IMG/VR virus record: IMGVR_UViG_3300021087_000857
Location: 32,001 to 96,000 of that record
Reading direction: 5' to 3' (one strand)
Source: a virus
DNA: 64,000 nucleotides
Below the pieces are notes generated by a model, which saw nothing but the letters and a program-made list of their open reading frames with translations, was not told the origin of the DNA and did no database searches. Below are positions 7,694-62,903 of the stretch, in pieces. Each line of letters begins with the position of its first letter. The first letter of the stretch is position 1. The position numbers and the translations under genes are program-made.

Positions 7694-8791
7694 ATGAAGC
7701 AAGGCAATTATATTTTTACAAGCGAAAGTGTAAGTAAAGGACACCCAGATAAGGTGTCAGATCAAATTAGTGATGCACTAGTTGATGCAGGATTAAAAAA
7801 CGGCGACGAGACAACTCGTGTAGCAGTTGAAACACTTGTAACCACTAACCATGTAACGTTAGCGGGTGAGGTAAAGAACTTTAATGTAAGCAAGGACGAA
7901 GTCAAACAAATCGTTCGTGACAAAGTTAAAGAGATTGGATACGAACAGGATGGATTCCATTGGGATAAGTTAAACATCTATAACGAGATTCATTCGCAAT
8001 CAGGTGATATTGGGTTGGGAACAGATAGTTTTGGTGCAGGTGATCAAGGTATTATGTTTGGTTACGCATGTACAGATAACGATGCAATGCTACCAGCACC
8101 TATTCATTACTCGCATGAAATTTTAAAGTCGTTAGACAAAGCAAGAGAAAGTGGATACGAATTTCTACTACCAGATGCTAAGTCACAAGTAAGTGTTCAG
8201 TACGAAGGTGGAAAGCCAACACGTATTGATCAAATTGTTGTATCACATCAACACAAAGACGGATTTCAACATAGCATTAAGGCACCTATAAAAGATGCCG
8301 CTAACGAAGTATTAGGAGATTTAATTGATAAAGAAACTGTATGGCATATTAATCCTACTGGTAATTTTGTTATTGGTGGACCCGATGGAGACACAGGTCT
8401 CACAGGCAGAAAGATCATTGTTGATACTTATGGTGGTTTTGCTCCCCATGGCGGCGGCGCATTTAGTGGCAAGGATCCTACCAAAGTAGATCGCAGTGCG
8501 GCTTATATGGCACGATGGTTAGCAAAGAATGTTGTAGCAGATAACATGGCTGACTGGTGTAGTATTCAACTTAGTTATGCTATTGGTGTTAAAGAACCTA
8601 CTAGTATCTATATAGATTCAAATGGACACAATAGAAGTATTCAGCAATTTATCCAAAACAACATTGACTTAACACCAAAAGGAATCATTGACAAGTTTGG
8701 GTTATTCAAGTATAATAAGTATAGTGAAAATTGTGTTTACGGACACTTTGGCGACAAAGATGTACCGTGGGAAAGTATAGGATGGAAATGA
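7694..8791 (+). CDS. metK: S-adenosylmethionine synthetase
   Basis: FTSESVSKGHPDK, GAGDQG, GGPDGDTGLTGRKIIVDTYGG and GGGAFSGKDPTKVDRS. Confidence 0.98.
   Translation: MKQGNYIFTSESVSKGHPDKVSDQISDALVDAGLKNGDETTRVAVETLVTTNHVTLAGEVKNFNVSKDEVKQIVRDKVKEIGYEQDGFHWDKLNIYNEIHSQSGDIGLGTDSFGAGDQGIMFGYACTDNDAMLPAPIHYSHEILKSLDKARESGYEFLLPDAKSQVSVQYEGGKPTRIDQIVVSHQHKDGFQHSIKAPIKDAANEVLGDLIDKETVWHINPTGNFVIGGPDGDTGLTGRKIIVDTYGGFAPHGGGAFSGKDPTKVDRSAAYMARWLAKNVVADNMADWCSIQLSYAIGVKEPTSIYIDSNGHNRSIQQFIQNNIDLTPKGIIDKFGLFKYNKYSENCVYGHFGDKDVPWESIGWK
8688..8716 (+). promoter_or_regulatory. Consensus sigma70 promoter inside the metK 3' end
   Basis: Perfect TTGACA, 17 nt spacer, TATAAT. Confidence 0.7.
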
Positions 8792-9072
8792 AAAATATGT
8801 TAGATAAGATAAAAGGTTTAGTTACACCAAAGCCAAAGCAAGAAGTAGTTTCTGATAAAGATAAAGCCACTGCAAAAGGTGAAGCTTACATTAAAGTACT
8901 TGATGTTAAGTTTGACAAAAACAATCCAGGTGATGGATATTTTGAGTTAGAGTGGAATAAAATATTCGTAAAGAAATTACTTGATGCAGGCTACAGTGGT
9001 AGTTCCGATGATGAAATTGTTGATGCTTGGTTTACAGGTCTTTGTAGACAAATTGCTGAAGACGAATCGTAA
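8788..9072 (+). CDS. Hypothetical phage protein
   Basis: ATGA overlap with the metK stop; GYFELEWN...IVDAWF. Confidence 0.75.
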   Translation: MKNMLDKIKGLVTPKPKQEVVSDKDKATAKGEAYIKVLDVKFDKNNPGDGYFELEWNKIFVKKLLDAGYSGSSDDEIVDAWFTGLCRQIAEDES

Positions 9073-9099
9073 TTTAATTTTAAACAATATAGGACTTCT

Positions 9100-10098
9100 A
9101 TGATGAGTTATATTTTAGTTGATGCCGCTAATATGTTCTTTCGTGCAAGGCACGTAGTTCAACGTGGTGCAGATATGGACACAAAGATTGGTATGAGTTA
9201 TCATATCATGTTTAATAGTATTAATAAAGTATGGCGTGAGCAACAAGGCTCGCATGTTGTACTATGTTTAGAAGGACGTAGTTGGCGTAAAGATGCATAT
9301 GAACCTTACAAGAATAATCGTAAGGTAGCTCGTGCAGCACTAACAGAAGCAGAGCAAGAAGAAGATCGTGCATTTTGGGATGCATTTGATGAGCTTAAAG
9401 CATTCTTTGAGAAACGTACTAATGTAACAGTATTGCAACATGGTGAGTGTGAAGCTGATGACTTTATTGCACGTTGGATACAAAATCATCCTAATGATAA
9501 ACATTGTATTGTAAGTAGTGATAGTGATTTCTATCAGCTTATTAATAAGAACGTTAATCAATACAACGGCATTACAGGTCAACTTATTACAACAGAAGGT
9601 ATCTTTAATGACAAAGGTAAGCCTGTTATGGATAAAAAAACTAAAGCACCTAAAGAGTTAGGTGACCCAGCATGGTTACTGTTTGAGAAGTGTATACGAG
9701 GCGACACCAGTGATAATGTGTTTAGTGCATTTCCAGGTGCTCGTAAAAAAGGTACTAAAAACAAAGTAGGAATGATGGAAGCATTTGCTGATAAAGATAC
9801 TAAAGGATTTAATTGGAATAACTTTATGCTACAACGTTGGGTAGATCATAACAATGAAGAGCATAGAGTATTAGAAGATTACGAACGTAACAGACAACTA
9901 ATTGACTTAACAATGCAACCTGATCATATTAAAGCAAAACTAGATGAGGCTATTGTTGAGCAAGTACAAAAAGAAAAGAAAGCACAAGTAGGAGTACATT
10001 TTATGAGATTTTGTGGAAAATGGGATATGCAAAGAGTAGTAGACAGAGCTACAGATCACTCTGCCTATTTAAATGCGAGTTATTCCAATGCCCAGTAA
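9100..10098 (+). CDS. rnh: T4 RNase H-like 5'-3' exonuclease / flap endonuclease
   Basis: ILVDAANMFFR, SWRK..Y..YK.NR, EADDFIA, VSSDSDFYQL and GDTSDNV. Confidence 0.9.
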   Translation: MMSYILVDAANMFFRARHVVQRGADMDTKIGMSYHIMFNSINKVWREQQGSHVVLCLEGRSWRKDAYEPYKNNRKVARAALTEAEQEEDRAFWDAFDELKAFFEKRTNVTVLQHGECEADDFIARWIQNHPNDKHCIVSSDSDFYQLINKNVNQYNGITGQLITTEGIFNDKGKPVMDKKTKAPKELGDPAWLLFEKCIRGDTSDNVFSAFPGARKKGTKNKVGMMEAFADKDTKGFNWNNFMLQRWVDHNNEEHRVLEDYERNRQLIDLTMQPDHIKAKLDEAIVEQVQKEKKAQVGVHFMRFCGKWDMQRVVDRATDHSAYLNASYSNAQ

Positions 10099-10807
10099 TG
10101 TATATTTGTTTGATGTAGATGGTACACTTACTGTAAGTCGTACATTAATGGATCCAGAATTCAAAGAGTTTTTCCTAAAATTTATAGCCGATAACGAAGT
10201 TTATTTGGTAACAGGAAGTGACTATGCTAAAACACTAGAACAACTAGGTGAAGATATTATGCATGGTGTAAAACGTTCATACCAATGTAGTGGAAACAGT
10301 CTTTATGAAAAAGGTGTTGAAATATCTCACAACGAATGGACACTAGGAAACGAAGAACGTGATTGTTTATCGCATGAGCTATTTGAGTCCAAGTTTCCCA
10401 TTAGAACAGGAATTAATCACATTGAAGAACGTCCTGGTATGGTTAACTTTAGTATACTTGGTAGAGGTGCTAATAAAGAACAACGTGAAGCATATGTTAA
10501 GTGGGATAAAGAACACAACGAACGTGAACGTATTGCTGGTATATTTAATAGCAGATATGGAAACAAAGGTATTAAGGCTCAAGTAGCAGGAGAAACAGGA
10601 TTAGACATTGTACAAGATGGATGCGATAAAGGTCAAGTACTAAATGACTTTGATGATTGCAATGTTATTTTCTTTGGAGATATGATGCAACCAGGTGGTA
10701 ATGATGAACCACTTGCTACTGCTATTGCTTCGAGAGGCAATGACAACGATGGATCTATATGGGTCAAGGATTGGAAGCATACGTGGGATATATTAAAGGA
10801 TTTATAA
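10088..10807 (+). CDS. Eukaryotic-type phosphomannomutase-like HAD IIB enzyme
   Basis: LFDVDGTLT, VTGSD, HIEERPGMVNFSILGR and FFGDMMQPGGND. Confidence 0.85.
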   Translation: MPSNVYLFDVDGTLTVSRTLMDPEFKEFFLKFIADNEVYLVTGSDYAKTLEQLGEDIMHGVKRSYQCSGNSLYEKGVEISHNEWTLGNEERDCLSHELFESKFPIRTGINHIEERPGMVNFSILGRGANKEQREAYVKWDKEHNERERIAGIFNSRYGNKGIKAQVAGETGLDIVQDGCDKGQVLNDFDDCNVIFFGDMMQPGGNDEPLATAIASRGNDNDGSIWVKDWKHTWDILKDL

Positions 10808-10808
10808 T

Positions 10809-10970
10809 CTGAGTATTGAACAAGGGTTGGGATTACTTTTAATTGGATTAGTAATAACAATAGTAGGTTTTTATATTGCATTTAATGTAGGAACTAAACA
10901 ATTACAAAAACGTAACAAACCAAAAGAAACAAATCCAATAGAAGAACTTAGGAGAAGACTAAATGGATGA
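10809..10970 (+). CDS. Small membrane protein (not in ORF track; CTG start or sequence error)
   Basis: Reads (L)SIEQGLGLLLIGLVITIVGFYIAFNVG...; SD AAGGA 8 nt upstream; fills the gap exactly. Confidence 0.5.
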   Translation: MSIEQGLGLLLIGLVITIVGFYIAFNVGTKQLQKRNKPKETNPIEELRRRLNG

Positions 10971-11172
10971 ACTAGAAAAAGCATATAGAGATTTTGAAGA
11001 ACTTTCTCTAAAGCACGAACCTTTAGCATCAGCTGGGGTTATGATGGCACAAGCACTTAAAATTTATAAGGCTTTGTTATCCGAAGAAGAATTTAATTTA
11101 ATGACTCAACATGTACTTAACAGTGCTGATGATATTGAATCATTGCAATTAAATAAACCAATGTTGCATTAA
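10963..11172 (+). CDS. Hypothetical protein
   Basis: SD AGGAG upstream. Confidence 0.7.
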   Translation: MDELEKAYRDFEELSLKHEPLASAGVMMAQALKIYKALLSEEEFNLMTQHVLNSADDIESLQLNKPMLH

Positions 11173-11173
11173 T

Positions 11174-11302
11174 ATGAAAGGTACATTACAATTCTTTTCT
11201 ATTATGATCTTTGCATTGTTATTAGGAATTGTAGTAGGTAATGCAGGTGGGCATGCAATTATGTATTTAGATGAATTTGAAGTAGACAGGACAATAAAAT
11301 GA
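11174..11302 (+). CDS. Small membrane protein (42 aa, not in ORF track)
   Basis: MKGTLQFFSIMIFALLLGIVVG...; ATGA overlap with next gene. Confidence 0.55.
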   Translation: MKGTLQFFSIMIFALLLGIVVGNAGGHAIMYLDEFEVDRTIK

Positions 11303-11625
11303 TTATCGAAAGAGAAAAATTAGAAGGGCAACTTAGAACAAGTATTATGGAAGTAACTTTTAATAAAATTAACGGTGACAACCGTGTTATGACATGTACA
11401 TTAAATGTATCACATCTTCCACCAGCAACTAAAAAAGATCCAATGACACAAGAAAAGATTCGTAAGATTAACGAAGAAGTTATGAGTGTTTGGGATACAA
11501 ATGCTAAAGGATTTAGAAGTTTTAGAATGGCAAATATCACTGAAGTTAAACGACTAGGAAGTGCGTGTTGGTGTGAAAAAAGTGGAAGTTATCCTACATG
11601 CGATAACACACATAAATCTCTATGA
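11299..11625 (+). CDS. WYL_2/SH3-like phage protein with C-terminal CDGSH-type [2Fe-2S] motif
   Basis: VTFNKINGDNRVMTCTL...VWDTNAKGFRSFR, followed by CWCEKSGSYPTCDNTH. Confidence 0.75.
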   Translation: MIIEREKLEGQLRTSIMEVTFNKINGDNRVMTCTLNVSHLPPATKKDPMTQEKIRKINEEVMSVWDTNAKGFRSFRMANITEVKRLGSACWCEKSGSYPTCDNTHKSL

Positions 11626-12068
11626 CACAGAAAATTAAAGAAATTATAAAAGACAAGTATTGGATCGTAGAAGGCCAATATGGTAAGATAGGTACTCTGC
11701 GTAAAGTAGAAGAAGGCTATGAGTTCTTTGATCAAAATAATAATAAAAAAGAACTACTAGATAGTATTGAGAGCTTCAAATCCGTTAATACAGCGGAGAT
11801 TAGCGGACCAACACAAGAGTATAAAGGGTTACCAACGAACACGAGTATTTTATACCCTGTTGAGCACGACACAATGCCACTGTTTAAAAAAGCAGAAAAA
11901 GGCAAGACTGTGTTTGTAGCAGGATATTATCTACTCAAGTATGATGGTATGGGATGGCAACATGCGTTCTGTCCTAAGTTAGAAACTGTAGAAAAGTATG
12001 AAACAAGAGGACCATTCTTTACTGAATGGGATATGAATTTAAACTTAAAGAAAGCGAGGCAAGAATGA
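11622..12068 (+). CDS. Hypothetical phage protein
   Basis: AGYY...WQHAFCPKLETV...GPF; coupled to neighbours. Confidence 0.7.
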   Translation: MTQKIKEIIKDKYWIVEGQYGKIGTLRKVEEGYEFFDQNNNKKELLDSIESFKSVNTAEISGPTQEYKGLPTNTSILYPVEHDTMPLFKKAEKGKTVFVAGYYLLKYDGMGWQHAFCPKLETVEKYETRGPFFTEWDMNLNLKKARQE

Positions 12069-12442
12069 AACTATTATGTACATTAGGAGCATTGGTTCTC
12101 CTATCAACATCGGTAATGGCACAACAGGAACTTAATCCAACACTGCCAACACCATCAACTCCAGAAGTTGAACAAGCACCAGAAGTGTCACCATGGAGAC
12201 AAATTAATAGAGTTATTACATGTAATTCGTTGGGAATTGTTAGAAATATACTAGAAACAAATGGACAAACAATATATGCAACTGGTTATAAGACACCAGA
12301 GTATTTGCCAATGGATCCATTTGATGGGGTTATAATTACTAGAAACGAAATAACGTTAGAATACACCATATTGCTTATTAAATCAGATTTGAATATAGCA
12401 TGTGTATTAGCTGGCGGCAATAGATTTGAATTGGTAGAGTAA
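12065..12442 (+). CDS. Secreted hypothetical protein
   Basis: Signal peptide MKLLCTLGALVLLSTSVMA; two Cys. Confidence 0.7.
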   Translation: MKLLCTLGALVLLSTSVMAQQELNPTLPTPSTPEVEQAPEVSPWRQINRVITCNSLGIVRNILETNGQTIYATGYKTPEYLPMDPFDGVIITRNEITLEYTILLIKSDLNIACVLAGGNRFELVE

Positions 12443-13281: not shown

Positions 13282-13282
13282 A

Positions 13283-13346
13283 CCATTAACTATAGTTTTT
13301 TTAGGTTATTTGTATAAATACATGTAACAGGAGAAACATTTAATGG
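13283..13346 (+). promoter_or_regulatory. T4-like late promoter TATAAATA inside an RBS-sequestering hairpin
   Basis: TATAAATA at 13313-13320 sits at the apex. Pairings: CCATTAA/TTAATGG, GTTTTTTT/GGAGAAAC, GTTA/TAAC, TGTA/TACA. Confidence 0.6.
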
Positions 13347-24432: not shown

Positions 24433-25860
24433 ATGTCAGATAGTAAATTACCAAGCGATACTTTTTGTATACTTCCGTGGATACATTTAAGTACTAGACC
24501 AGATGGAAGTATGAGAGTATGTTGTACTGCTAACGCATCAAGTGTAGGAGCAACAAATGATAAAGCACACGGTGGAAGAGTAGGTATTGTTAAAACAGAA
24601 GATGGCAAGCCTGCTAACCTAAACAACAGTGATCTTAACAGTAGTTGGAATAACAGCTATATGCGAAGTGTTAGACAAATGATGCTTAAAGGCGATAAGC
24701 CAGCAAGTTGTTTAAAATGCTACAAAGAAGAAGATGCAGGACACAGATCAAAGCGTCAATGGGAAACAGACTATTGGATGCGTGATGGTATTGATGTTGA
24801 CGAACTAGTAGCTCAAACATACGAAGATGGATCAACAGATAGTAAACTACGTTATATTGATATTCGTATGGGAACTAAATGTCAATTAGGTTGTGTTATG
24901 TGTAGCCCACATGATAGTTCAGGTTGGGTGAAAGACTGGAACAAGTTATATCCAAATATTACAAATGAATCTCTAAAAGAAACTATGAATTGGGATTCTA
25001 AAGGTAAAACGTTTGGTGCTAGTTATAATTGGCACAAAGACAATCCAGTATTTTGGGATCAGTTTTATGCACAAATTCCATACATTAGACAGTTATACTT
25101 TGCAGGCGGCGAAAGTACAGTTATTGAAGAACATTATAGTATTTTATCTAAAGTTATTGAAATGGGGTATGCACATCAAATTGAAGTACGTTATAATTCA
25201 AACGGAATTGAACTACCAGATAGACTATTAGAACTATGGACACATTTCCAAAAAGTACGTTTCCATTATAGTATTGACAGTATTGGTGTAATGAATGATT
25301 ATATTCGTTACCCAAGTGAATGGGACCATCAACTTAAAATGTTTGAACGTTTAGATAAAGAAACATCTAACAATGTAGAAGTTACAATTGCATGTGCCGT
25401 TAACGCTCTTAACATTCATTATATTCCAGACTTCCTTAAATGGAAACTTCAGGATAGCGGACTAAAGAAAACAAATATGTGGCCATTTGGTGCAGGCGGT
25501 ATTAACTATCACTTTGTATACTGGCCAGGACATTTGAATGTTAAAGTACTACCAGATGAATTCTTAGATAAGACTGAAGCTAAGTATGAAGAATTTATTG
25601 AATGGTGGAAAGAAAATTGGGAACTAGGTGTTCCAAGTTGGCATAAAGGTAAAGTAACCAAAGAACAATGGCTAGATGCGAGTTATGGAATTAAACGTTT
25701 ACGTGGTATGATTAGTTTTGCTCGCAGTGAAGATTGGAGTAGACGCTTACCAGAATTTAGAGAATATATTAATAAACTAGATGAGTTACGTGGAACTGAT
25801 TTCCGCAATACATTTCCAGAAATGGCATACTTACTAGATGAACCGGAGAATGATAAATGA
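24433..25860 (+). CDS. N-terminal twitch-domain radical SAM protein
   Basis: FCILPW..RVCC..CLKC, then CQLGCVMC, AGGES and SIDS. Confidence 0.92.
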   Translation: MSDSKLPSDTFCILPWIHLSTRPDGSMRVCCTANASSVGATNDKAHGGRVGIVKTEDGKPANLNNSDLNSSWNNSYMRSVRQMMLKGDKPASCLKCYKEEDAGHRSKRQWETDYWMRDGIDVDELVAQTYEDGSTDSKLRYIDIRMGTKCQLGCVMCSPHDSSGWVKDWNKLYPNITNESLKETMNWDSKGKTFGASYNWHKDNPVFWDQFYAQIPYIRQLYFAGGESTVIEEHYSILSKVIEMGYAHQIEVRYNSNGIELPDRLLELWTHFQKVRFHYSIDSIGVMNDYIRYPSEWDHQLKMFERLDKETSNNVEVTIACAVNALNIHYIPDFLKWKLQDSGLKKTNMWPFGAGGINYHFVYWPGHLNVKVLPDEFLDKTEAKYEEFIEWWKENWELGVPSWHKGKVTKEQWLDASYGIKRLRGMISFARSEDWSRRLPEFREYINKLDELRGTDFRNTFPEMAYLLDEPENDK

Positions 25861-26432
25861 AATATTTATTAGTCGCACTTGAAAATGAAGTGCCAAATAT
25901 CGATTTACCCGATGATTATACACTAATGATTACAGGTGTAGGTAAAGTAAATGCTACTGTAATGGCTACTATTGCCGCTAGACAACCAGACTGTGAATGT
26001 ATTATTAACTACGGAACAGCAGGAACTTTTAATCCTAAACTAGTTGGTAAACTACACAGAATTGGAATAGTAAAACAACGCGATATGGATGCAAGACCAC
26101 AAGCACCATTAGGAACTACTCCATACGAAGATACAAAATTCAGCAGTGATTTGCAACTTTATAAAGGAAGTAAATTTACATTAAGCACAGGCGATAACTT
26201 TGTAAAAGCCAACCCCGAAATGCAAAGTGACTTTGTAGACATGGAAGGGTATGCTATTGCAAAAGTGGCAGGTATGTTTAATAAGCCATGTATGATGTTA
26301 AAATATGCAAGCGACTTAGCTGACGATAAAGCACCAGAAGAATGGGAAAAGAATCAAGCCAAAGGCAAAGATATGTTCCTAAAATGGCTAGATGATTTAG
26401 AAAAGAATATCCAAGAAATAAACGATGAGTAA
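25857..26432 (+). CDS. mtnN: MTA/SAH (5'-deoxyadenosine) nucleosidase
   Basis: TGVGKVNA, INYGTAG, STGDNFV, VDMEGYAIA and KYASD. Confidence 0.88.
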   Translation: MKYLLVALENEVPNIDLPDDYTLMITGVGKVNATVMATIAARQPDCECIINYGTAGTFNPKLVGKLHRIGIVKQRDMDARPQAPLGTTPYEDTKFSSDLQLYKGSKFTLSTGDNFVKANPEMQSDFVDMEGYAIAKVAGMFNKPCMMLKYASDLADDKAPEEWEKNQAKGKDMFLKWLDDLEKNIQEINDE

Positions 26433-27684
26433 TTCGGGCTTTTGTGCATTACCATTTGTTCAATATAGTACTTACAACGGAGGACGTTTTAGACTTTGTT
26501 GTATGGCTAAAGAACCTAAAGAACTAGTCAATCAAGAAGAACTAGGAATTGATGGCACTTGGAATCACAATTATATAAAAGACGTAAGACGCAGAATGAC
26601 TGCTGGTGAGAAATTATCAGAGTGTATTGAATGTCATCATTTAGAACGTAACGGAATAATGAGCTCACGCCAATGGGAAAATAAAGTGTGGGCAGACGTA
26701 ATAGATGATGTAGTAGCAGACGCATCAGCTAATGATTGGGAGATTGACCAGCCTCTACAATTTGATTTTAGACTTGGTAACTTATGTAATTTGCAGTGTC
26801 AAATGTGCAACAAAGAAGCATCTCACTTAGTGAGTGTGGAAAGAGCCACAATGGTACAAAGCGGACTCGGAGCGAACCATCCTGATTGGGACGGCAATAT
26901 TGCAAACAAAAAACAAGCATTACTTCAACCTGGAATAGAGTGGGAGAGCTTTGAAAGAATGTTACCATATGCTCGCAAAATAAAACTAATAGGTGGCGAG
27001 CCTACAGTTGCTCAAGACATGTTTAAATTGTTAGACATTGCAACTGCAAGTGGTCATGCAGAACATATAGAATTAAGTTTTTATACAAACATCACTAACA
27101 TGCAAGATAAATGGTTAGACCAACTATCTAAGTTTGAGAAAGTGATTGTTAACTGTTCATTGGAAGGAATGGAAGATATGAATGATTATCTTAGGCCTCC
27201 AAGTAAGTGGGCAAGTGTATGGAAGAACTTTGATAAGTTAGTTAAGTTCTCAGATACAAAAGAAGGTAAACGTATAAAGGTACGAGTTACTACAGTAAAC
27301 CAAATAACCAATGCATTGCATACTGCTACATTTTGGAAGTTTATGCATGATTATCAGATGACTAGTAATAGAGGCATTGGTATGAGTACTAACCAATTAG
27401 TAGAGCCAGCATACTATAGTATGGCACATGCTCCTGAATGGTTGAAAGAAGAACAACGTGAACAGATTTTGGAATTTCTCAAAAGCATTGGCAACAGTCC
27501 ACATTTTGAGCAATACGAAGAACCTCTTATGGAACTTGTTAATTTTAGTTTGGATCCTGAGCATAAGTATGATGCTGACATCATGCGCCAGTATGTCAAG
27601 ATCACCGAAAACTACGACAGATTCAGAGGACACGACATTATTCAAGTGTCGCCCGAATTTAGAAGAATTAAAAGAGACCTCTGA
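26425..27684 (+). CDS. N-terminal twitch-domain radical SAM protein
   Basis: FCALPF..LCC..CIEC; CNLQCQMC; GGEP. Confidence 0.92.
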   Translation: MSNSGFCALPFVQYSTYNGGRFRLCCMAKEPKELVNQEELGIDGTWNHNYIKDVRRRMTAGEKLSECIECHHLERNGIMSSRQWENKVWADVIDDVVADASANDWEIDQPLQFDFRLGNLCNLQCQMCNKEASHLVSVERATMVQSGLGANHPDWDGNIANKKQALLQPGIEWESFERMLPYARKIKLIGGEPTVAQDMFKLLDIATASGHAEHIELSFYTNITNMQDKWLDQLSKFEKVIVNCSLEGMEDMNDYLRPPSKWASVWKNFDKLVKFSDTKEGKRIKVRVTTVNQITNALHTATFWKFMHDYQMTSNRGIGMSTNQLVEPAYYSMAHAPEWLKEEQREQILEFLKSIGNSPHFEQYEEPLMELVNFSLDPEHKYDADIMRQYVKITENYDRFRGHDIIQVSPEFRRIKRDL

Positions 27685-27738: not shown

Positions 27739-28569
27739 TTAAAACTTTTTAATACGTTCTGCCATACATAGCTCAGGCTTGAGCAAACTTTCATTTAATA
27801 TATCAGCTTCAAAGCATTGTAACTTTGTGCCAAATACAATTTGGTGAGTAATCCATTGTGCATTAAAGAACCAAATATCACCTGGATCAAAAGTAATATA
27901 ATGTAATGGGTGGTGAAACTGATCCCATTTTTCTTCATTCCATACACATCTATCACGCATTCCAGTAATAAATGTATGTATGTTGTTTTTATCTAGTTCA
28001 CCTAAGTTAAACTTATCTTTGTACATGTTATACATTTGTTGTAAGTCTGGACCACACGATAATACTCTAGGACGCTTTTTATCTAATTGAACAAACATAC
28101 GTATCTGTTGTTCTAGTCCAGTGTGTTGTTCATCTAGTTCGTCCAAGTGTAGTTTATTTTCTACTAGTGTATTATATCTATGACTAAGCATACGTTCACT
28201 TGTTTTGTAATGTGGGAATAACATATCAAATACTTCGTTCCATCCATTGTTAGCTTGTTTGTGTTTTTGATGAAATACATTAATTTGCTCGTCATTCCAA
28301 CCACGTTCTATATGCATACGTGATCTATTTTTAATATGACTGTTATACCAAGGCATAATCCATTTGTTATCTTTAATAGTCCAGTCTGGTAAGTCGTCAT
28401 AGTAATCATAATCTAATTGTGGTATAGTTAGATTTTTAATAACCACCGGCCAGCCACTTTCAAATGCTTCGTATAGTTTAAAATTGTCTTTTAGGTCGTG
28501 TTTATTAGCGTCGAAAACATTGACAATGAAGTCGTTTCCTGCTATAATATCTTTAGCGATACGGGTCAT
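27739..28569 (-). CDS. Kdo hydroxylase (KdoO)-like Fe(II)/2OG dioxygenase
   Basis: KLHLD, IRMFVQLD..RPRV, FDPGDIWFF...THQI; start set at MTR after GGAG. Confidence 0.65.
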   Translation of the reverse strand: MTRIAKDIIAGNDFIVNVFDANKHDLKDNFKLYEAFESGWPVVIKNLTIPQLDYDYYDDLPDWTIKDNKWIMPWYNSHIKNRSRMHIERGWNDEQINVFHQKHKQANNGWNEVFDMLFPHYKTSERMLSHRYNTLVENKLHLDELDEQHTGLEQQIRMFVQLDKKRPRVLSCGPDLQQMYNMYKDKFNLGELDKNNIHTFITGMRDRCVWNEEKWDQFHHPLHYITFDPGDIWFFNAQWITHQIVFGTKLQCFEADILNESLLKPELCMAERIKKF

Positions 28570-28598
28570 GTTGTATAAAACTCCATTTGTGTGTATAG

Positions 28599-28618
28599 AT
28601 AAATACATATATATTTAT
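28599..28618. promoter_or_regulatory. Palindromic pair of late-type ATAAATA motifs between divergent genes
   Basis: ATAAATA (28599-28605), CATATA, TATTTAT (28612-28618). Confidence 0.45.
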
Positions 28619-28674
28619 GCAAGTAAAAATCCAAGTTCAACGCATATTGAACAAACATCATATGAGAATAAAAA

Positions 28675-29760
28675 ATGACAAAATCAGTTAATGTATGGAG
28701 CGAATTTCAGCCCCTAAAAAGAGTAGTGCTAGGAGCACCGTTTCCACCTGAAACATTTGATTGGCACGAGGACGAAGAAACACGCAATGTAATGCGTCAA
28801 ATCTTTAAAGAAACAGCCGAGGACATAGCAGTGCTGGAGGGAATATTAAAGGACAGAGGTATTGAAGTAGTACGTCCTAAAAATATATTTACAATCACAG
28901 GTGAAGAACAAATTAAATTACCATGGATGCATTGTGGGTTTCCTAACCACCCATTAATGCCACGTGATACACTTATGCCGTATGGCAATAGTATATTTGA
29001 ATGTTTTACAGGTAGCGATAATCGTTACTTTGAGAATCTCGCATATTACGATCATTGTAGTAAATGGTTTAGTGAAGGTGCAGATTGGGTTAGTATGCCA
29101 GGAGTATTAGTAGAAAGTGGTAAAAAATATGACCACTTTGTAGATAATCATCGACTGCTTTATCATGCGGCTAACATGATAAAGTGTGGACGCCACGTTT
29201 TGTTTAGCCAACCCTATGAGGGAGACAATAAACGAGGCAGAGGTACGGAGCTGGGCCGTGAATGGATTCGTAGAGAAATAAAACTACGTTATCCAGATAC
29301 AAAGTTTTTGGACATTCCAGTAGGAGGACATATCGATGGTAAAATAGCATTGCTAAAACCTGGTGTGCTAATGACCTGGAATGCAAATTGGGTTCCTAAA
29401 GAAATGGAAGGTTGGCACATTATTGAAGTAGATGATGATTTTGACATGCCAGAAGATTTCCAACAAACTCGTAAGAAAAGATTCCACAAAGAATATGTAA
29501 GCAAGTGGTTAGAGCATTGGGTAGGTTGTCCAGACGAAAGTGTGTTTGATGTTAACGTACTATCACTAGATGAAAAGACGGTAATTTGTACAGGTAAAAA
29601 TGAACAAGCATTTGCTGAAATGGAAGCACATGGCATTGAACCAATATACTGGAACTTTAGACATCAGTATTTTTGGGATGGTGGCATACATTGTTTAACA
29701 AGTGATATTGTTAGAGAAGGTGGGCAGGAAGATTATATAACTAACAAAAGGTACTATTAA
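28675..29760 (+). CDS. Amidinotransferase (glycine/inosamine-phosphate amidinotransferase family)
   Basis: VWSEFQPLKRVVLG, MPRD, GHIDGK, FDVNVLS and GGIHC. Confidence 0.9.
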   Translation: MTKSVNVWSEFQPLKRVVLGAPFPPETFDWHEDEETRNVMRQIFKETAEDIAVLEGILKDRGIEVVRPKNIFTITGEEQIKLPWMHCGFPNHPLMPRDTLMPYGNSIFECFTGSDNRYFENLAYYDHCSKWFSEGADWVSMPGVLVESGKKYDHFVDNHRLLYHAANMIKCGRHVLFSQPYEGDNKRGRGTELGREWIRREIKLRYPDTKFLDIPVGGHIDGKIALLKPGVLMTWNANWVPKEMEGWHIIEVDDDFDMPEDFQQTRKKRFHKEYVSKWLEHWVGCPDESVFDVNVLSLDEKTVICTGKNEQAFAEMEAHGIEPIYWNFRHQYFWDGGIHCLTSDIVREGGQEDYITNKRYY

Positions 29761-54352: not shown

Positions 54353-55318
54353 TTAAATCTTATGTGCAAACAAACTGCTTACACTTTCTTCGTTTGATAC
54401 ACGCCTAATAGCTTCACCAAACATAGTTGATACACTTACTGCACGAGTCTTTTTGCAATCATGTGGACATTTAAAATCTATACTGTCTGTGATTACAAGT
54501 TCTTCTAATACACTGTCTTCAACTTTCTGACATGCCTTGCCAGTTAATACTCCGTGTGTAATATATGCTCTAACACTTAATGCACCTTGGTCCATAATAG
54601 CCTGTGCGGCATTACACAATGTTCCGCCACTGTCAACAATATCGTCAACTAAAATAGCATGACAACCTTTAACTTCACCAATTATATTCATTACTTCGCT
54701 TACACCTGCTTTAGGTCTACGCTTGTCAACAATAGCGATGTCTCCGCCAAACATATCAGCAAAACGTCTAGCTCTTACAGTACCGCCTGCATCTGGTGAT
54801 ACAAAAACAGTTTCTACATCATGTACATCTTGTCCTTCTTTGTAGAATTGTTTTTTAATATCTTTTGCAAATGCAATTCTGCTTGTTAAGTCATCTACAG
54901 GAATATCAAAGAAGCCCTGTATTTGTCCTGCATGTAAATCCATTGTAAGGATTCTATCTGCACCAGCTTCTGTAATTAAGTTTGCTACTAGTTTAGCAGT
55001 AATTGGTGTACGACTTGCACTTTTACGATCTTGTCGTGCATAACCAAAATAAGGAATAACTGCGGTAATACGCTTGGCACTGCTACGCTTAGCCGCGTCA
55101 ATCATAATCATTAATTCCATTAGGTTATCGTTTACTGGTGTACTTGTACTTTGTATAATAAAAACATCTTCACCACGGATATTTTCTAAAAATTCTACAC
55201 TACTCTCACCATCCGCAAAAGTCTTAATCTCGGCAGGCACTAGAGTAGCAAAACAATGAGCGGCGATTTTCTCGGCCATTTCAATGTTACTATTTCCAGC
55301 TATAATTTTCATATGCAT
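54353..55318 (-). CDS. prs: Ribose-phosphate pyrophosphokinase
   Basis: [34 protein letters not shown] and [11 protein letters not shown]. Confidence 0.97.
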
Positions 55319-56814: not shown

Positions 56815-57219
56815 CTATGTGTTAATATCTTCCATACTGCCATCACTGTACTCTACTTCAAAATATTGAGTACCGTCATCTCTAGTACGAGCTGTTCTAC
56901 TTACTTCAGTAACAGCTGGTTGTTGTGTTTCTTTTGGTTGTGCTTTCTTTGGTGCAGGTTTAGGAGGTTCAACTGTAGTTTTCTTTTCTACAGGTGTTTC
57001 TTCTTCCTTAATACTTATATCTTCTTTTGCACCTGGAACATTATCTTTATAGAATTCCTTTTGTATTTTTTCTCTAGGAATTTCTACTTTACCTCTACTA
57101 TCAATAATGTCTCCTCGAGCATTCATATTTAAATTACTTACTGCTCTTGTTTCTTCATTTTTTGCCGCTAAAGCTCCCATATCTAATGTACGGCCTCTAG
57201 CTGTTTTAACTGTTTTCAT
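56815..57219 (-). CDS. Hypothetical phage protein
   Basis: TARGRTLDMGAL..NE..RAVSNLNMNARGD. Confidence 0.8.
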   Translation of the reverse strand: MKTVKTARGRTLDMGALAAKNEETRAVSNLNMNARGDIIDSRGKVEIPREKIQKEFYKDNVPGAKEDISIKEEETPVEKKTTVEPPKPAPKKAQPKETQQPAVTEVSRTARTRDDGTQYFEVEYSDGSMEDINT

Positions 57220-57722
57220 TTTAAAAACTCCTTGATATCAAGTTCGTACTTTATACTGTCTATATGATGTATACCCAGTAAGTACAGACAGTAACTAGCT
57301 ACACTACTGCCCCTTCCTACACCTAATACAATGTTATGCTTGTCACATGTATCTACTAAGTGTAGCAAGAATTTTAGCACAATAATCATTCCTCGTTTTT
57401 CGTATTCAACGAGTTCTGTATATACTCTATCACGTTGTTGTGCATTTGTACAACGTTCCATTAACCATTCGTGGATATTTAAATCCTTGTAACTGTCTGG
57501 CATATTCCATTTATTTAAACAATCCTCAACATATGTATCAGTTGTATTTTGTGGTTTTGCATCAATAAATCTATCTAAATCAAATGTTTGACACCATTCG
57601 TTATATATATTTATGGGTTTTGTATCTTCAACAATTACATCTGTAACGTTATTTCCACTTAACCAACCTGTAACAATATCTTGCTCAGATACTACATATT
57701 GCTTGTTTTTATTCATCTGCAT
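57216..57722 (-). CDS. dnaE: DNA polymerase III alpha subunit fragment (split DnaE)
   Basis: RVYTEL...GVGRGSSVASYCLYLLGIHHIDSIKYEL..EFL. Confidence 0.8.
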   Translation of the reverse strand: MQMNKNKQYVVSEQDIVTGWLSGNNVTDVIVEDTKPINIYNEWCQTFDLDRFIDAKPQNTTDTYVEDCLNKWNMPDSYKDLNIHEWLMERCTNAQQRDRVYTELVEYEKRGMIIVLKFLLHLVDTCDKHNIVLGVGRGSSVASYCLYLLGIHHIDSIKYELDIKEFLK

Positions 57723-57734
57723 CCCATTATTATA

Positions 57735-58438: not shown

Positions 58439-58822
58439 TTATTCTACCTTTGGTAATTCTATTGCATTTGCGTTTGCTTCAACTTTTTCCATATCAAAGT
58501 TTACGCTCTCTCCACAACCACAACTGCTTGATGCTGATGGGTTTACTACTTCTAACATTGTTCCCATTACGTCTTGTTTTAACTCAAGTGTGGTTCCAAA
58601 TAAAAACATAATGCTAGAACTGTCAACGGCCATTTTTCTTCCGTTATCCATTATAATAACATGATCTGCTTTTTTGTCAAGTTCATTTTCTTCTTTTAAT
58701 TTCCAAACATAACTGAATCCTGCACAACCGCCTCCTTTAAGGCCTAACACAGGAATTTTACCTTCGTTCGCATCGCTGATACCAGTTAGATGGTTCATTG
58801 CTTTTTCTGTGACTTTAATCAT
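58439..58822 (-). CDS. A-type Fe-S carrier (HesB/IscA/SufA)
   Basis: GGGCAGFSY and NPSASSSCGCGES. Confidence 0.92.
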   Translation of the reverse strand: MIKVTEKAMNHLTGISDANEGKIPVLGLKGGGCAGFSYVWKLKEENELDKKADHVIIMDNGRKMAVDSSSIMFLFGTTLELKQDVMGTMLEVVNPSASSSCGCGESVNFDMEKVEANANAIELPKVE

Positions 58823-59019
58823 TACTTGCTTCCTATATAACCTGCTATGATTCCTATCAATCCAGTCAGTGCCATTTTCATTAAAGTAATAACACTTTCG
58901 TCTACTGGTCTATTTTCTTGTAATGCAACATAATAGTCGCCTACAATAATAATTCCTAATAGTGAAAGTACACCTACTACTAACGCTACTATAATTAAGT
59001 CTTTTAAATTTTTGATCAT
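58822..59019 (-). CDS. Small two-TM membrane protein
   Basis: Two hydrophobic helices. Confidence 0.7.
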   Translation of the reverse strand: MIKNLKDLIIVALVVGVLSLLGIIIVGDYYVALQENRPVDESVITLMKMALTGLIGIIAGYIGSK

Positions 59020-59531
59020 TGTTCTATCTCCAAAGCGGACAAGAGTTCTATCTCTTCTCCATTTAGGTATTTTAAGTTAACTACTGTTATACCACCTAAT
59101 ACCATTGCACCAGTTTGTTCACATAACTTTTTACTAGCAGTCATGCTACCACCTGTTGCAACTAAATCGTCTGCTATTACAACTCTACTTGTATGACCCA
59201 ATATACCTTCTTGCAATGTAAGTGTATCTGTTCCATATTCGAGTTCATAACTTTCTTCTAACAGCTTACCTGGGTATTTAGCACCTTTTTTGCGAATCAT
59301 AACAAAAGGCACATCTAATTCTTGTGATAATGCTGCTCCTAGTACAAAACCTCTGCTTTCAATACCAACTATATGTGTTGGCATAAACTCAACATGGTCA
59401 CGTAACTCTTCTGCCATTTCTTCTACTAAACTTGTCCACAAATTACTTGCAAACAAACTGTTTATATCATAAAAATTTACACCTTCTATAGGGTAATCTG
59501 GTACTGTTCTAATATAATCTTTTATGTTCAT
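59016..59531 (-). CDS. apt: Adenine phosphoribosyltransferase
   Basis: PDYPIEGVNFYDI, GIESRGF, IRK, YELEYG and ADDLVATGGS. Confidence 0.93.
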   Translation of the reverse strand: MNIKDYIRTVPDYPIEGVNFYDINSLFASNLWTSLVEEMAEELRDHVEFMPTHIVGIESRGFVLGAALSQELDVPFVMIRKKGAKYPGKLLEESYELEYGTDTLTLQEGILGHTSRVVIADDLVATGGSMTASKKLCEQTGAMVLGGITVVNLKYLNGEEIELLSALEIEQ

Positions 59532-60445
59532 TATATATTCCACTCCTTGTTTATTTTTCCTTCACTTGGTCCATTGGCTTGTGTTATATTGGGAAGTTTT
59601 GGCGAAACTGTAAAACCTGCATGCAGTATCCATTCCATCCATAATGTATGTGCAGATGACATTACTGCTATAGATCTACGATTAGCCATATAGCTCAATA
59701 GTAAGCTACTAAGTAATTCAATTGGATTATTTGCAAATATTTTGTTGTTGGGTTCGCTAAAGTCAAAAGCAAATATATGATCATTAACAAAAGGTACACT
59801 TGCAGCTCGTTCAGTAATAACACAATCATCTGCACTTAGACAAGTTGGACTATGAAACATATTTCCAAAATCTACTTCATTATTAATCCAATCACGTAAT
59901 TGATTTTTAAATCTTTCTTTATTTGTATTAACCCAATCTTCACCTTCAAAACGTTTGATCATTAAATCCCATCTTAGCTTTATTACTGCAACATACTTAT
60001 TAGGTGCAAGGTAAGGTTGTGCAAGTAAAAACGATTGATGTGCTGACCATACTTGCCCTACTGTTCCTTTTATTCTTTCTTTTGCAAAGTCAATATAACT
60101 TACATCTGAATTACCTTTAAGAATATCCATATAGTCAGACTTTCTATACCATAGATCTTTTGTTTGGAAAAATTGTTCCCATACAGGAAAGTATCCGTCA
60201 TCATCGTATTTAAAATTTATAATATTATCCCAAATTATTTCTTGATCTTCACTCCTATATTCTTTAAACTTTTGTTTTACTTCGTCATGTGGATCTTCTT
60301 GATCTGCCCAAGTATGCCCAAACAAGTCACAATCGTATTCATCAAATAATTCAAGTATTTCATAAAAATCATTTGTGTATTTTTCATTTTTATTAAAATG
60401 TCTTGTTTGCCCACTGACACAAATTGCTATTTTCTTTTTAGTCAA
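59531..60445 (-). CDS. Uncharacterised, possibly glycosyltransferase-like protein
   Basis: KIAICVSGQTR, FGHTW, IKLRWD and NDHIF. Confidence 0.6.
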   Translation of the reverse strand: MTKKKIAICVSGQTRHFNKNEKYTNDFYEILELFDEYDCDLFGHTWADQEDPHDEVKQKFKEYRSEDQEIIWDNIINFKYDDDGYFPVWEQFFQTKDLWYRKSDYMDILKGNSDVSYIDFAKERIKGTVGQVWSAHQSFLLAQPYLAPNKYVAVIKLRWDLMIKRFEGEDWVNTNKERFKNQLRDWINNEVDFGNMFHSPTCLSADDCVITERAASVPFVNDHIFAFDFSEPNNKIFANNPIELLSSLLLSYMANRRSIAVMSSAHTLWMEWILHAGFTVSPKLPNITQANGPSEGKINKEWNI

Positions 60446-61631
60446 AACAAATCTCCGGTAAGTATTCAGTTATACTTTGCTTACGTATGCGATCTAAACT
60501 TCGTGTGTATGCTTTTGCTCTGTCCCATGCTATTGGATTATCAGGACCACTAAACATATTTTTTAATTCTTGTACTTTCCATTCTGGAAGAATATCACTT
60601 ATTTGTTTATGAATATCTTCACGCATTGATTTCGGCAATACAGACGGACTTAGTATATCGGGATCATACACATAGTTGTGATGTACCCATACTCCATGTT
60701 TATTATGGAAAAAGTCATAAAACTTTCCTAGTGTGCTATAATTCATAAAGCTCACAGTTTGTGCTACATCAAGTTCAAAGTTTTCTTCTTTTAAACGCAA
60801 GAAGTTTTTCATAACATCGTCCCATTTGGTTGGGTGTCGTATGTATTCATTGCGTTCAGCTAAATCATCAATACTACAACTAATTTTAACTTTATCAAAC
60901 TTACGCCATAACTCAATTATTTCTTCACTCATAAGAGTCATGTTAATATTGTACCATAATTTAACATCTGTTTTGCCCATTTCAACTAAACGTTCTAAGA
61001 ACTTAAAATGTTGTTTAATCATAGTAGGCTCGCCGCCATTAATATAAAATGTTTTTACATCATTACAATGCTTGAATAGGTCTTCCCAAAATCCATCTCG
61101 TTCGGGCCATCTAAAACCTTGCATAGTATTGTAATTGGTTATATTAAATGGCAAGTCTGCTTGTAACTTATCGTAATCATTACGCCATTTACTACTGCTT
61201 GCAGGGTTACAGGTTCTACATGCTACATTACAGGTATTACCTAAACGTAATTCTACAAAGTCTAATTGCACATCTTGTATATAACCATCAGCATCAGTAA
61301 CAGATTGTGCTACATCTTGTGTATAATTGGGATAGTTTTTTATCTCGCCCAGTCTTTTAGACTGCATTCCTTTATCTTCTTCATTATAGCAACGCATACA
61401 TGCTTGTGGCTTTTTATTATCAAGTACTTCTAGCCTAGCCTTGCAAAAACTTTCACTGTTCATAGTATCATGTACAGTATCTTGATTGAGATTGTAGTAG
61501 CGATGTCCATTTTCATTATTATCACGACTGCTACTAATTGCATCACGGTGATCTGCAATACAGCAATGTGTTACACCACCATGTGGGTGTGTAGCTAAAT
61601 GCTGAAATAACAGTGGACAAAATGTGCTCAC
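60438..61631 (-). CDS. N-terminal twitch-domain radical SAM protein
   Basis: FCPLLF..HCC..CMRC; CNVACRTC; NGGEP. Confidence 0.92.
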   Translation of the reverse strand: MSTFCPLLFQHLATHPHGGVTHCCIADHRDAISSSRDNNENGHRYYNLNQDTVHDTMNSESFCKARLEVLDNKKPQACMRCYNEEDKGMQSKRLGEIKNYPNYTQDVAQSVTDADGYIQDVQLDFVELRLGNTCNVACRTCNPASSSKWRNDYDKLQADLPFNITNYNTMQGFRWPERDGFWEDLFKHCNDVKTFYINGGEPTMIKQHFKFLERLVEMGKTDVKLWYNINMTLMSEEIIELWRKFDKVKISCSIDDLAERNEYIRHPTKWDDVMKNFLRLKEENFELDVAQTVSFMNYSTLGKFYDFFHNKHGVWVHHNYVYDPDILSPSVLPKSMREDIHKQISDILPEWKVQELKNMFSGPDNPIAWDRAKAYTRSLDRIRKQSITEYLPEICFD

Positions 61632-61636
61632 TGAAT

Positions 61637-61987
61637 TTATTCCTCGTCTGTAATATCTATAGGATCATCAAATCCTGGTCTATCCATAAGCCCCATGCCA
61701 GATGGGTCGCTCATATAATATGGATCGTTAAACATTGGATCGTCTTCGCTTGTTACACCTTTAATCTCTGGAACAAAATGCATAAGTGTAGATTCTACGC
61801 CCATTTGTAGAGTAGCAGTGCTACTAGCACAACCACTACAACTTCCGCTCATTTGTGTGTGTAATATTCCTGTTTCTTCATTAAAGTTTAGTATGTTTAT
61901 TTGTCCACCGTGCATTGCTACGTTAGGTGCAACGTATTCTTCCATAACTTCATCTACTTGTTTAAGTATTTCTTCTTTAGTTCTCAT
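61637..61987 (-). CDS. NifU/Nfu Fe-S carrier domain protein
   Basis: PNVAMHGG...MSGSCSGCASSTATL..GVE. Confidence 0.92.
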   Translation of the reverse strand: MRTKEEILKQVDEVMEEYVAPNVAMHGGQINILNFNEETGILHTQMSGSCSGCASSTATLQMGVESTLMHFVPEIKGVTSEDDPMFNDPYYMSDPSGMGLMDRPGFDDPIDITDEE

Positions 61988-62087
61988 AGCCTTGCTCCTT
62001 ACGTGCTTTACCTACAATAAAGCCTGCTAAAAAACTTGCTGCCATTACTGAGCAGATTGCTAATAAGTGCCATATGATAAAACTCAT
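61977..62087 (-). CDS. Small membrane peptide (36 aa, not in ORF track)
   Basis: MSFIIWHLLAICSVMAASFLAGFIVGK...; SD GGAG upstream. Confidence 0.45.
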   Translation of the reverse strand: MSFIIWHLLAICSVMAASFLAGFIVGKARKEQGYEN

Positions 62088-62088
62088 A

Positions 62089-62256
62089 TTATTCTCCTTG
62101 TTCTACCGCTTCTATACGGTGATGAGGATATGCCTTCGGGCGTACCTCTTTTAATTTTTCCATGTATTGTTGTGCTTCAGTTTCAGTTTCAAAACGTGCA
62201 ACTGCTACCTCATCATGAATTCGAGGTGTATAAATTATTTCGTACATATTATTCAT
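62089..62256 (-). CDS. Hypothetical protein
   Basis: Start MNNMY overlaps the ferredoxin stop. Confidence 0.6.
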
Positions 62257-62602
62257 CGCCCTTTCCTGGCTTGTAAGATAAATGTTCTCGTTTATCTTTA
62301 ACTTTTGCCCATTCTTCTGCATCTGGCGGTACATCTTCTGGCCGTGCTAATGTAATATTAGGCCATTCCTCAGACATGTCTGCATTAAACTTATACCAAA
62401 AATCATAATCTTCTCCCTCTAATGCATTGTCTGGAACAATAGCATCTACAGGACATTCTGGTTCACATACACCACAGTCAATACACTCATCTGGGTTAAT
62501 TACTAAAAAGTTTTCACCTTCATAAAAACAATCCACAGGACAAACTTCTACGCAGTCCATGTGCTTACATTTAATACACTCGTCTTTAACTAAATATGTC
62601 AC
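62249..62602 (-). CDS. fdxA: 7Fe ferredoxin
   Basis: [18 protein letters not shown]...[14 protein letters not shown]. Confidence 0.95.
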
Positions 62603-62603
62603 C

Positions 62604-62903
62604 TTATACTCCTAAAATTAATTTTGCTTCTTCACTCATCTTATCTGGACCAAAAGGCGGATCAAATGTGATCTGAACATCACAAGTTTTTATGCCATCT
62701 ACCATACATGCATCGTGAACGTCTTGTTTGATTTGGTCTGCCATTGGGCAAAACGCACTTGTTAACGTCATTACAATAACAACGTTTGAACTTACTATAT
62801 TTATTTCATATATTAAACCTAAGTCATATACGTTAATACTGATTTCTGGGTCATATACCTTACGTAAATTATCAATAATTACTTGTCTAATTTCTTTAGT
62901 CAT
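62604..62903 (-). CDS. SufT/DUF59 (MIP18) Fe-S assembly protein
   Basis: [26 protein letters not shown] and FDPPF...MSEEAK. Confidence 0.92.

Follow-up and report, generated by a model that had tools for sequence, protein, structure and literature searches.

Candidate cofactor-supply genes alongside a radical-SAM expansion in an uncultured aquatic jumbo phage

Radical S-adenosylmethionine (rSAM) enzymes require flavodoxin or ferredoxin as reductant, and NfuA and the A-type carriers are responsible for the maturation of [4Fe-4S] enzymes, rSAM enzymes included. In Escherichia coli the nucleosidase Pfs/MtnN relieves the inhibition of BioB and LipA by 5'-deoxyadenosine and is the remover of this product also for ThiH. 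Genes of these families, together with genes for the synthesis of S-adenosylmethionine (SAM) and for adenine salvage, are found in a stretch of viral DNA of 64,000 nucleotides (nt), hereafter the window, which corresponds to bases 32001-96000 of the 110,270-bp IMG/VR record IMGVR_UViG_3300021087_000857. The record belongs to an uncultured aquatic jumbo phage and holds about 20 rSAM genes, 17 of which lie within the window.

Among viruses, iron-sulfur (Fe-S) assembly genes were described by Nishimura et al. 2017 (mSphere, PMC5332604) in marine T4-like environmental viral genomes encoding an A-type carrier, IscU, a DUF59 protein ('PaaD'), glutaredoxin, Cas4, and ClpP, with as many as 12 rSAM genes in a single genome of an uncultured marine phage, and the authors put forward the idea that the Fe-S proteins served by such assembly genes are those of the virus itself. 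The co-occurrence of an A-type carrier, a DUF59 protein, and rSAM genes is common to those genomes and to the phage described here. In contrast, a reductant chain made of FdxA and Fpr, IscS, Nfu, MetK, MtnN, Apt, and evidence from gene order are not listed in that paper, while the present phage has about 20 rSAM genes on 110 kb, a conserved Fe-S island, and a nucleosidase gene inside an rSAM operon. Viral metK and mtnN, the same two genes as here, were reported by Kieft et al. 2021 (bioRxiv 10.1101/2021.01.05.425418) to be conserved and under purifying selection and were read as part of methionine degradation to sulfide, without being connected to rSAM enzymes, Apt, or Fe-S supply. In the literature searched, no description ties a phage nucleosidase, Apt, MetK, and the FdxA-Fpr couple to rSAM expansions; the presence of Fe-S genes with many rSAM genes in marine phages is known since 2017, and no earlier report was found of an extension to SAM, 5'-deoxyadenosine, and reductant.

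In comparison to bacteria, the phage proteins belong to the same families and keep the conserved ligands of the late factors of the ISC and SUF systems (IscA/ErpA, NfuA, and SufT) and of the Fpr-FdxA couple; in particular, the phage FdxA passes the cut-off of the proteobacterial FdxA equivalog, and relatives of the phage have a true IscS and a true IscU, as bacterial systems do. Unlike the bacterial ISC and SUF genes, those of the phage are dispersed and occur in lineage-dependent subsets, Nfu consists of the C-terminal domain alone, and the SufT- and Fpr-like proteins score below the equivalog level.

The reading preferred here, which has about an even chance of being correct, is that the phage lineage carries a loosely organised cofactor-supply set for its roughly 20 rSAM enzymes, arranged in three linked pieces and neither complete nor fixed. 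The original prediction had listed nine such genes in the window (MetK, MtnN, Apt, Prs, an A-type carrier, Nfu, SufT, a 7Fe ferredoxin, and a CDGSH motif protein); eight of the nine are solid by profile hidden Markov models or motifs, whereas the CDGSH motif is real but scores below threshold. The functional ties of these genes to the rSAM enzymes are suggested by gene order and distribution. The link is partly supported, being strongest for the Fe-S/FdxA island and the nucleosidase, moderate for MetK and Apt, weak for Prs, and unsupported for the CDGSH protein.

The consumers of the supply are counted in the record as 18 matches to PF04055 (Radical_SAM), with 13 genes above the NF033640 cut-off for the N-terminal-twitch type; to these are added a divergent QueE-like gene and a SPASM rSAM gene, the latter detected by direct scanning only. 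The nucleosidase gene and the main rSAM genes are arranged as follows:

24433-25860, plus strand: N-terminal-twitch rSAM whose stop overlaps the MtnN start (NF033640, 417.8 bits against a cut-off of 170)
25857-26432, plus strand: short nucleosidase of the methylthioadenosine (MTA)/S-adenosylhomocysteine (SAH) type, MtnN-like (PF01048, PNP_UDP_1, 52.6 bits against 25.1)
26425-27684, plus strand: N-terminal-twitch rSAM whose start overlaps the MtnN stop (NF033640, 293 bits)
28675-48947, plus strand: main rSAM array with tailoring genes (PF04055 and NF033640 matches across the array)

The placement of MtnN inside the rSAM cluster, as originally predicted, is thus confirmed by an overlap with twitch rSAM genes on both sides. 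The protein shares with E. coli Pfs/MtnN the fold of the MTA/SAH nucleosidases (MTANs) and the catalytic motifs, and it would follow the same logic of relief from product inhibition; it is shorter (about 190 residues versus about 232) and scores under every NCBIfam nucleosidase cut-off (best NF004168, 97.8 versus 129 bits), the superfamily model alone being passed. The acidic N-terminal A-L-E-N-E motif, (D)M-E-G, and S-D align with those of solved MTANs over the aligned regions, and the catalytic motifs are invariant in 4 phage homologs. The protein is proposed as a candidate 5'-deoxyadenosine hydrolase. The rSAM-MtnN-rSAM arrangement is repeated in relatives (records are indicated by handles beginning with G, this phage being G000, and loci by handles beginning with L), with MtnN located beside the clamp loader instead in G016 and G017; an rSAM gene is adjacent to MtnN in 22 of 80 viral loci.

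MtnN is also encountered in cassettes of MetK, Apt, and MtnN, three overlapping open reading frames (ORFs) on the same strand among helicase, ThyX, and DNA ligase genes. Such cassettes, together with Apt-MtnN pairs in two further contigs, were observed among the loci L427:4317-6564, L430 (the first two in IMG/VR contigs 3300025108_004851 and 3300006793_005564), L415, and L418, and they resemble a stand-alone phage cassette for SAM and adenine salvage. Their recurrence supports the existence of a real phage cassette that follows the salvage logic from MtnN through Apt to MetK. In a sister clade the clamp loader, an MtnN-like gene, and FdxA recur together (L366, L369, L370, L382, L386 in G074, L389, L392, and L414). 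For two members of this clade rSAM matches were counted over the whole record, giving 13 in G023 and 17 in G074; in G023, FdxA is beside the clamp loader without MtnN.

The second group of genes is an island on the minus strand:

62604-62903, minus strand: SufT-like DUF59 Fe-S maturation factor (PF01883, 58.7 bits against 23.5)
62249-62602, minus strand: FdxA, a 7Fe ([3Fe-4S][4Fe-4S]) ferredoxin (NF045490, 149.7 bits against 135)
61637-61987, minus strand: Nfu-type carrier, NifU C-terminal domain (PF01106, 72.1 bits against 27; CSGC motif)
60438-61631, minus strand: N-terminal-twitch rSAM inserted in the Fe-S island (NF033640, 347.7 bits against 170)
59531-60445, minus strand: 304-residue protein between Nfu/rSAM and Apt (no Pfam or NCBIfam match)
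59016-59543, minus strand: Apt, adenine phosphoribosyltransferase (NF002636, 169.8 bits against 125)
58439-58822, minus strand: A-type Fe-S carrier of the IscA/ErpA/SufA class (TIGR00049, 67.4 bits against 58.8)

The run proceeds from SufT and FdxA through a gap of 261 nt to Nfu, the twitch rSAM, the 304-residue protein, Apt, an ORF of 65 residues, IscA, and MazG, and from Nfu through MazG neighbouring genes overlap or are separated by 0-5 nt. The metal-binding positions are well preserved. In the A-type carrier, Cys33 and C101-G-C103, ligands of the Fe-S_biosyn type, are invariant in the alignment (for scanning, an alignment of 7 sequences was too diverse, with no conserved stretch, and a version of 5 sequences was used); FdxA has the CxxCxxxxCxxxCP and CxxCxxCxxxCP motifs, with all Cys ligands invariant in 6 orthologs, and a DUF3470 tail (PF11953, 50.2 bits), and the TSAFCP motif of the SufT-like protein is likewise invariant. 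The SufT-like protein reaches 105.5 bits with TIGR02945, under the equivalog cut-off of 143.4, Nfu is not a full NfuA (TIGR03341, 54.5 versus 269), and Apt, which passes NF002636 at the equivalog level, is below the TIGR01090 cut-off (156.3 versus 185.85 bits).

The order of the island is kept in G001, G002, G003, and G006-G011, whether or not the inserted rSAM and the 304-residue protein are present, and Apt keeps its place from Nfu to IscA across G001-G011; the 304-residue protein occupies the same position in G001, G002, and G008, and an rSAM gene is inside the island in this phage and in G010. In relatives the order extends into GroES, ClpP, Prs, and the clamp loader, and reduced cores are found in distant members, namely FdxA-Apt-IscA (G013), Prs-IscA-FdxA (G017), and IscA-FdxA-SufT (G022). 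These observations support the view of a single conserved, operon-like island made up of the Fe-S genes, the ferredoxin gene, and Apt, with an rSAM gene inside it here.

The third group includes MetK and the gene upstream of it:

6301-6747: QueD/PTPS
6748-7647, plus strand: QueE-like rSAM, divergent and with an insert, directly upstream of MetK (five best NCBIfam matches all QueE families, all below cut-off)
7694-8791, plus strand: MetK, SAM synthetase (TIGR01034, 429.9 bits against 309.4; PF00438, PF02772, and PF02773 all present)

MetK begins 46 nt past the QueE-like gene, and the order QueE-MetK-g060-FEN is found in 8 relatives (G002, G006, G007, G008, G009, G013, G059, and G062). The MetK ortholog of G006 (C1:41539-42615) has one in-frame TAA within the match.

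CheckV puts the completeness of the record at about 32%, so that the whole genome would measure roughly 340 kb. Among cultured phages, the PA5oct-like Pseudomonas jumbo phages are closest by clamp-loader identity (51%); Atu_ph07, RsoM2USA, GAP32, and XacN1 come next, and a megablast of 20 kb against GenBank phages gave no close phage. The supply genes were scanned in 22 IMG/VR records found via the clamp loader, at 57-93% identity. Those at about 80% identity or more have up to 25 rSAM matches each, and G017 (69%) has 15. FdxA and IscA are both present in 10 of 10 close-relative records with 11-25 rSAM matches (G000-G004 and G006-G010); of these, 8 have MtnN and 6 have MetK, some contigs ending before the region. 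In these rSAM-bearing relatives, every record that covers the region encodes FdxA and the carrier; most, not all, also encode Nfu, SufT, Apt, MetK, and MtnN. The same scan revealed no rSAM and none of the supply genes in G021 (318 kb, 85% complete), G019, and G018, and IscS, IscU, and Fpr-like genes were likewise not found when G021 was searched locally. In PA5oct, Atu_ph07, RsoM2USA, GAP32, and XacN1 (287-490 kb), between 0 and 4 rSAM matches were counted and the supply genes are all missing, the sole related matches being unrelated proteins with a phosphoribosyltransferase (PRTase) domain (a single one in PA5oct and two, both weak, in XacN1). As to whether the set is equally common in related phages poor in rSAM genes, this is not the case for the Fe-S genes, FdxA, and MtnN, which the G021 lineage and the cultured jumbo phages lack, and it is the case for Prs, which is found in cultured phages generally.

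In the clamp-loader tree the rSAM-free clade of G021, G019, and G018 groups (96/96) with the rSAM-rich clade of G017 and the focal clade, and G023 and G074 form another rSAM-rich clade. The rSAM proteins of G056 and G023 are mostly of the twitch type and 22-37% identical to the focal ones, with a few orthologs at 45-74%; the twitch-rSAM paralog family appears old and fast diverging. From these comparisons the expansion looks ancient and ancestral to the whole family. The simplest history would be one old gain, followed by the joint loss of rSAM and supply genes in the G021 lineage, which is suggestive, on a single-gene tree and with one or two events.

Cluster assembly and reduction are encoded in close relatives. 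In G002, whose clamp loader is 90% identical and which is syntenic over the whole focal contig, a true IscS (745.9 bits against 548) has an rSAM gene and an Fpr-like ferredoxin-NADP reductase as neighbours, and the record also encodes a true IscU (210 bits against 192.4); in G004, G023, and G056, Fpr-like genes occur together with IscU or a SufS-like gene. By synteny with G002, the IscS, IscU, and Fpr-like genes would lie past the end of the focal contig. The Fpr-like proteins are under the equivalog cut-off, and a search for flavodoxin found none in G000, G002, G004, G023, and G056. The corresponding loci are L330:2627-5873, minus strand, in G002 (the Fpr-like gene at 5088-5873), L329:3704-4120, minus strand, and L331:3782-4561 and 6940-7359, both minus strand, in G004. 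Taken together, the IscS, IscU, and Fpr-like genes of the close relatives give the phage lineage an almost complete ISC pathway and a reductase.

In the proposed mechanism, newly made apo-rSAM proteins would receive their [4Fe-4S] clusters from the IscA, Nfu, and SufT carriers, and the 7Fe FdxA would donate one electron per rSAM turnover. In close relatives, FdxA could be reduced by the phage Fpr-like reductase at the expense of NADPH, and clusters could be built by the phage IscS and IscU. The inhibitory 5'-deoxyadenosine would be hydrolysed to adenine by the MtnN-like nucleosidase, Apt would return adenine to AMP with phosphoribosyl pyrophosphate (PRPP), and MetK would remake SAM from ATP and the methionine freed by rSAM turnover. 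Prs is probably a general nucleotide gene that would supply PRPP incidentally. ATP regeneration and, as far as the contig shows, cluster assembly would be left to the host.

Several observations weigh against so direct a link. The supply genes occupy four separate places in the window, and lineages carry different subsets of them, so that the proposal of one coherent module, made before this analysis, was not supported; nor was the claim of a self-contained loop, since the relatives encode IscS, IscU, and the Fpr-like reductase beyond the part covered by this contig and the host has to provide ATP regeneration. A match between supply and rSAM load is not supported either, in view of two complete genomes, G056 (328 kb, direct terminal repeats, 21 rSAM, sharing 77 of the 164 record proteins) and G023 (358 kb, 13 rSAM, sharing 58 of 164), which are without MetK, MtnN, Apt, and Nfu. 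The supply genes of G056 are SufS-like, IscA, SufT, FdxA, Fpr-like, and Prs, and those of G023 are IscU, IscA, FdxA, and Fpr-like, only IscA and FdxA being from the list of the window. SufT is missing in G002, G007, and G008 (13-25 rSAM), and G017 (15 rSAM) has no Nfu, SufT, Apt, or MetK. Other combinations are found in G073 and G074 (9 and 17 rSAM), which have MtnN and IscA plus MetK or FdxA; in particular, G073 (338 kb, complete) encodes MtnN, IscA, and MetK and no FdxA. Moreover, 54 of the 80 viral MtnN loci are without an rSAM gene within 6 kb, and so are the MetK-Apt-MtnN and Apt-MtnN cassettes among replication genes; MtnN also cleaves SAH and MTA, and the cassette would therefore serve methyltransferases as well as rSAM enzymes. 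As the expansion looks ancestral, the co-occurrence represents a single gain, possibly with one or two losses.

Another 50 viral records, selected for carrying FdxA, the carrier, or SufT, gave a mixed picture. Records with SufT have a median of 6.1 rSAM per 100 kb versus 0 for the rest (Mann-Whitney p = 1e-4, kinship ignored), and the few records with MtnN or MetK are also rSAM-rich (p = 0.005 and 0.05), an association that is weakened because G059 and G062 are members of the focal clade and not independent. In the same selection 10 of 17 contigs with FdxA and 10 of 16 with IscA are free of rSAM genes, a pattern mostly set aside as an artefact of fragments; in fact, these contigs say little because by CheckV most cover 10-30% of a genome of about 350 kb, and the clamp-loader tree places several of them in rSAM-rich clades. 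G024 (142 kb, 60% complete), with FdxA and SufT and no rSAM gene, is a real counter-example.

The most serious alternative regards the genes as unconnected auxiliary functions of general use to large aquatic phages, their co-occurrence deriving from genome size and shared ancestry. Prs and Apt would maintain nucleotide pools for a genome of about 340 kb, MetK and MtnN would serve methylation and the removal of SAH and MTA, and the Fe-S carriers and the ferredoxin would sustain host and phage Fe-S proteins under iron scarcity. A tblastn search against 50,697 GenBank phage records is instructive in this regard: 822 of them contain Prs-like genes and 138, for the most part small phages of streptococci, contain MetK, and both are common phage genes without rSAM expansions. 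The description of viral metK and mtnN as organosulfur auxiliary genes without an rSAM link (bioRxiv 10.1101/2021.01.05.425418), the MetK-Apt-MtnN cassette amid helicase, ThyX, and ligase genes, the position of the island inside a replication and housekeeping block (MazG-GroES-ClpP-Prs-clamp loader), and the different subsets in different lineages agree with the same explanation. For the other genes the search gave few records (carrier 11, FdxA 8, SufT 11, Nfu 0, nucleosidase 10, and Apt 16), the matches of the carrier, FdxA, SufT, the nucleosidase, and Apt being mostly in unannotated or bacterial-looking records, and the combination in the window exceeds chance. Relatives in IMG/VR are numerous, with FdxA in at least 584 contigs, the A-type carrier in at least 583, SufT in at least 312, and MtnN in at least 518, which favours a general role; most of these contigs, however, are fragments of the same phage family by CheckV and the clamp-loader tree. 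General-purpose roles also leave unexplained the overlap of MtnN with two rSAM genes, the rSAM gene inside the Fe-S island here and in G010, the IscS and Fpr-like genes adjoining an rSAM gene in G002, and the lack of supply genes in the large rSAM-free G021 and in five cultured jumbo phages of 287-490 kb. This explanation is considered rather unlikely.

A second alternative, which appears improbable, is that the set mainly serves a 7-deazaguanine DNA-modification pathway, in which QueE needs SAM, a [4Fe-4S] cluster, and reductant and a neighbouring PRTase would use the PRPP made by Prs. MetK does follow the QueE-like gene directly in 8 relatives, and G056 and G023 both preserve a second PRTase (record position 28549-29001); but these two genomes retain QueE-like genes without MetK, MtnN and the Fe-S island go with the twitch rSAM genes and not with QueE, and a single QueE hardly needs five Fe-S factors. 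Finally, a role of MetK and MtnN in host takeover or counter-defence through SAM, SAH, or MTA levels, with the Fe-S genes unrelated, would agree with the general knowledge that phages manipulate SAM pools and with the presence of MetK in many small temperate phages without rSAM genes, but is very improbable in view of the translational coupling of MtnN to rSAM genes and of surroundings of MetK and MtnN in which no defence or anti-defence context was seen.

The preferred reading, a loosely organised supply set for the rSAM enzymes, agrees with the order of the Fe-S/FdxA island, the overlap of MtnN, the QueE-MetK order, the rarity of the genes, and their joint absence in G021; of the support role assigned to all nine genes in the original prediction, Prs, which is generic, and the CDGSH protein, which is sporadic, have to be subtracted. 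A wider version is advanced tentatively, as possible and somewhat short of probable: a family of phages of about 330-360 kb would have its own rSAM cofactor economy (IscS/SufS, IscU, IscA, Nfu, SufT, Fpr-like, FdxA, MetK, nucleosidase, and Apt), gained and lost with the twitch-rSAM expansion, as in the G021 lineage. If this were true, the phage would be largely independent of the limited Fe-S, SAM, and reductant capacity of the host. Auxiliary phage genes are usually interpreted singly, whereas here gene order ties a hydrolase, adenine salvage, carriers, and a ferredoxin to many rSAM genes. If the link is real, cofactor supply would limit radical chemistry during infection, viral metabolic autonomy would extend to Fe-S biogenesis and SAM recycling, and the co-expression of FdxA, the Fpr-like reductase, the carriers, and the nucleosidase would offer a recipe for the reconstitution of twitch rSAM enzymes in vitro.

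The two remaining genes of the list are located elsewhere in the window:

54353-55318, minus strand: Prs, PRPP synthetase (NF002320, 456.2 bits against 297; PF13793, 177.8 bits)
11299-11625, plus strand: WYL_2 protein with a C-terminal CDGSH-like motif (PF10902, 46.7 bits; zf-CDGSH, 22.8 versus a cut-off of 29.5)

In the gap upstream of Prs there is a sigma70-like site (11/12). Such sites are not enriched in the sequence (64 found versus 67 expected from shuffled sequence), a further point that does not favour a common supply function, and since they are no commoner than in shuffles, no claim of a shared promoter is made. The CDGSH-like tail, CxCxxSxxxPxCDNTH, keeps three Cys and one His, with N replacing G, and matches only positions 29-48 of the profile. 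It is found in 2 of 6 orthologs (this phage and G007), those of G006, G009, and G013 ending after WYL_2, and the gene stands alone, apart from the other supply genes. The protein was rejected as a firm member of the set on account of its sub-threshold score and sporadic tail.

The GC content is uniform across the window (0.32-0.36), with a change of coding strand at about 49.2 kb. Contamination or a chimeric origin was ruled out by the even GC content and by the synteny of the supply genes in more than 10 viral contigs. At the beginning of the window, motifs of a subtilisin-type protease are split over two adjacent ORFs on the plus strand (32-646 and 659-1786), GTHVAG being the His motif and GTSMAAPHVAG the Ser motif. 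Read from the translation only, this arrangement points to a gene that is split or expressed by read-through, and the end of the second ORF (YKVTF) is similar to that of outer-membrane beta-barrel proteins. An ORF of 168 residues at 57216-57722 on the minus strand corresponds to only a piece of the NTPase domain of the DNA polymerase III alpha subunit (PF07733, 39 bits) and is kept in all relatives, beside the MazG and GroES-like genes.

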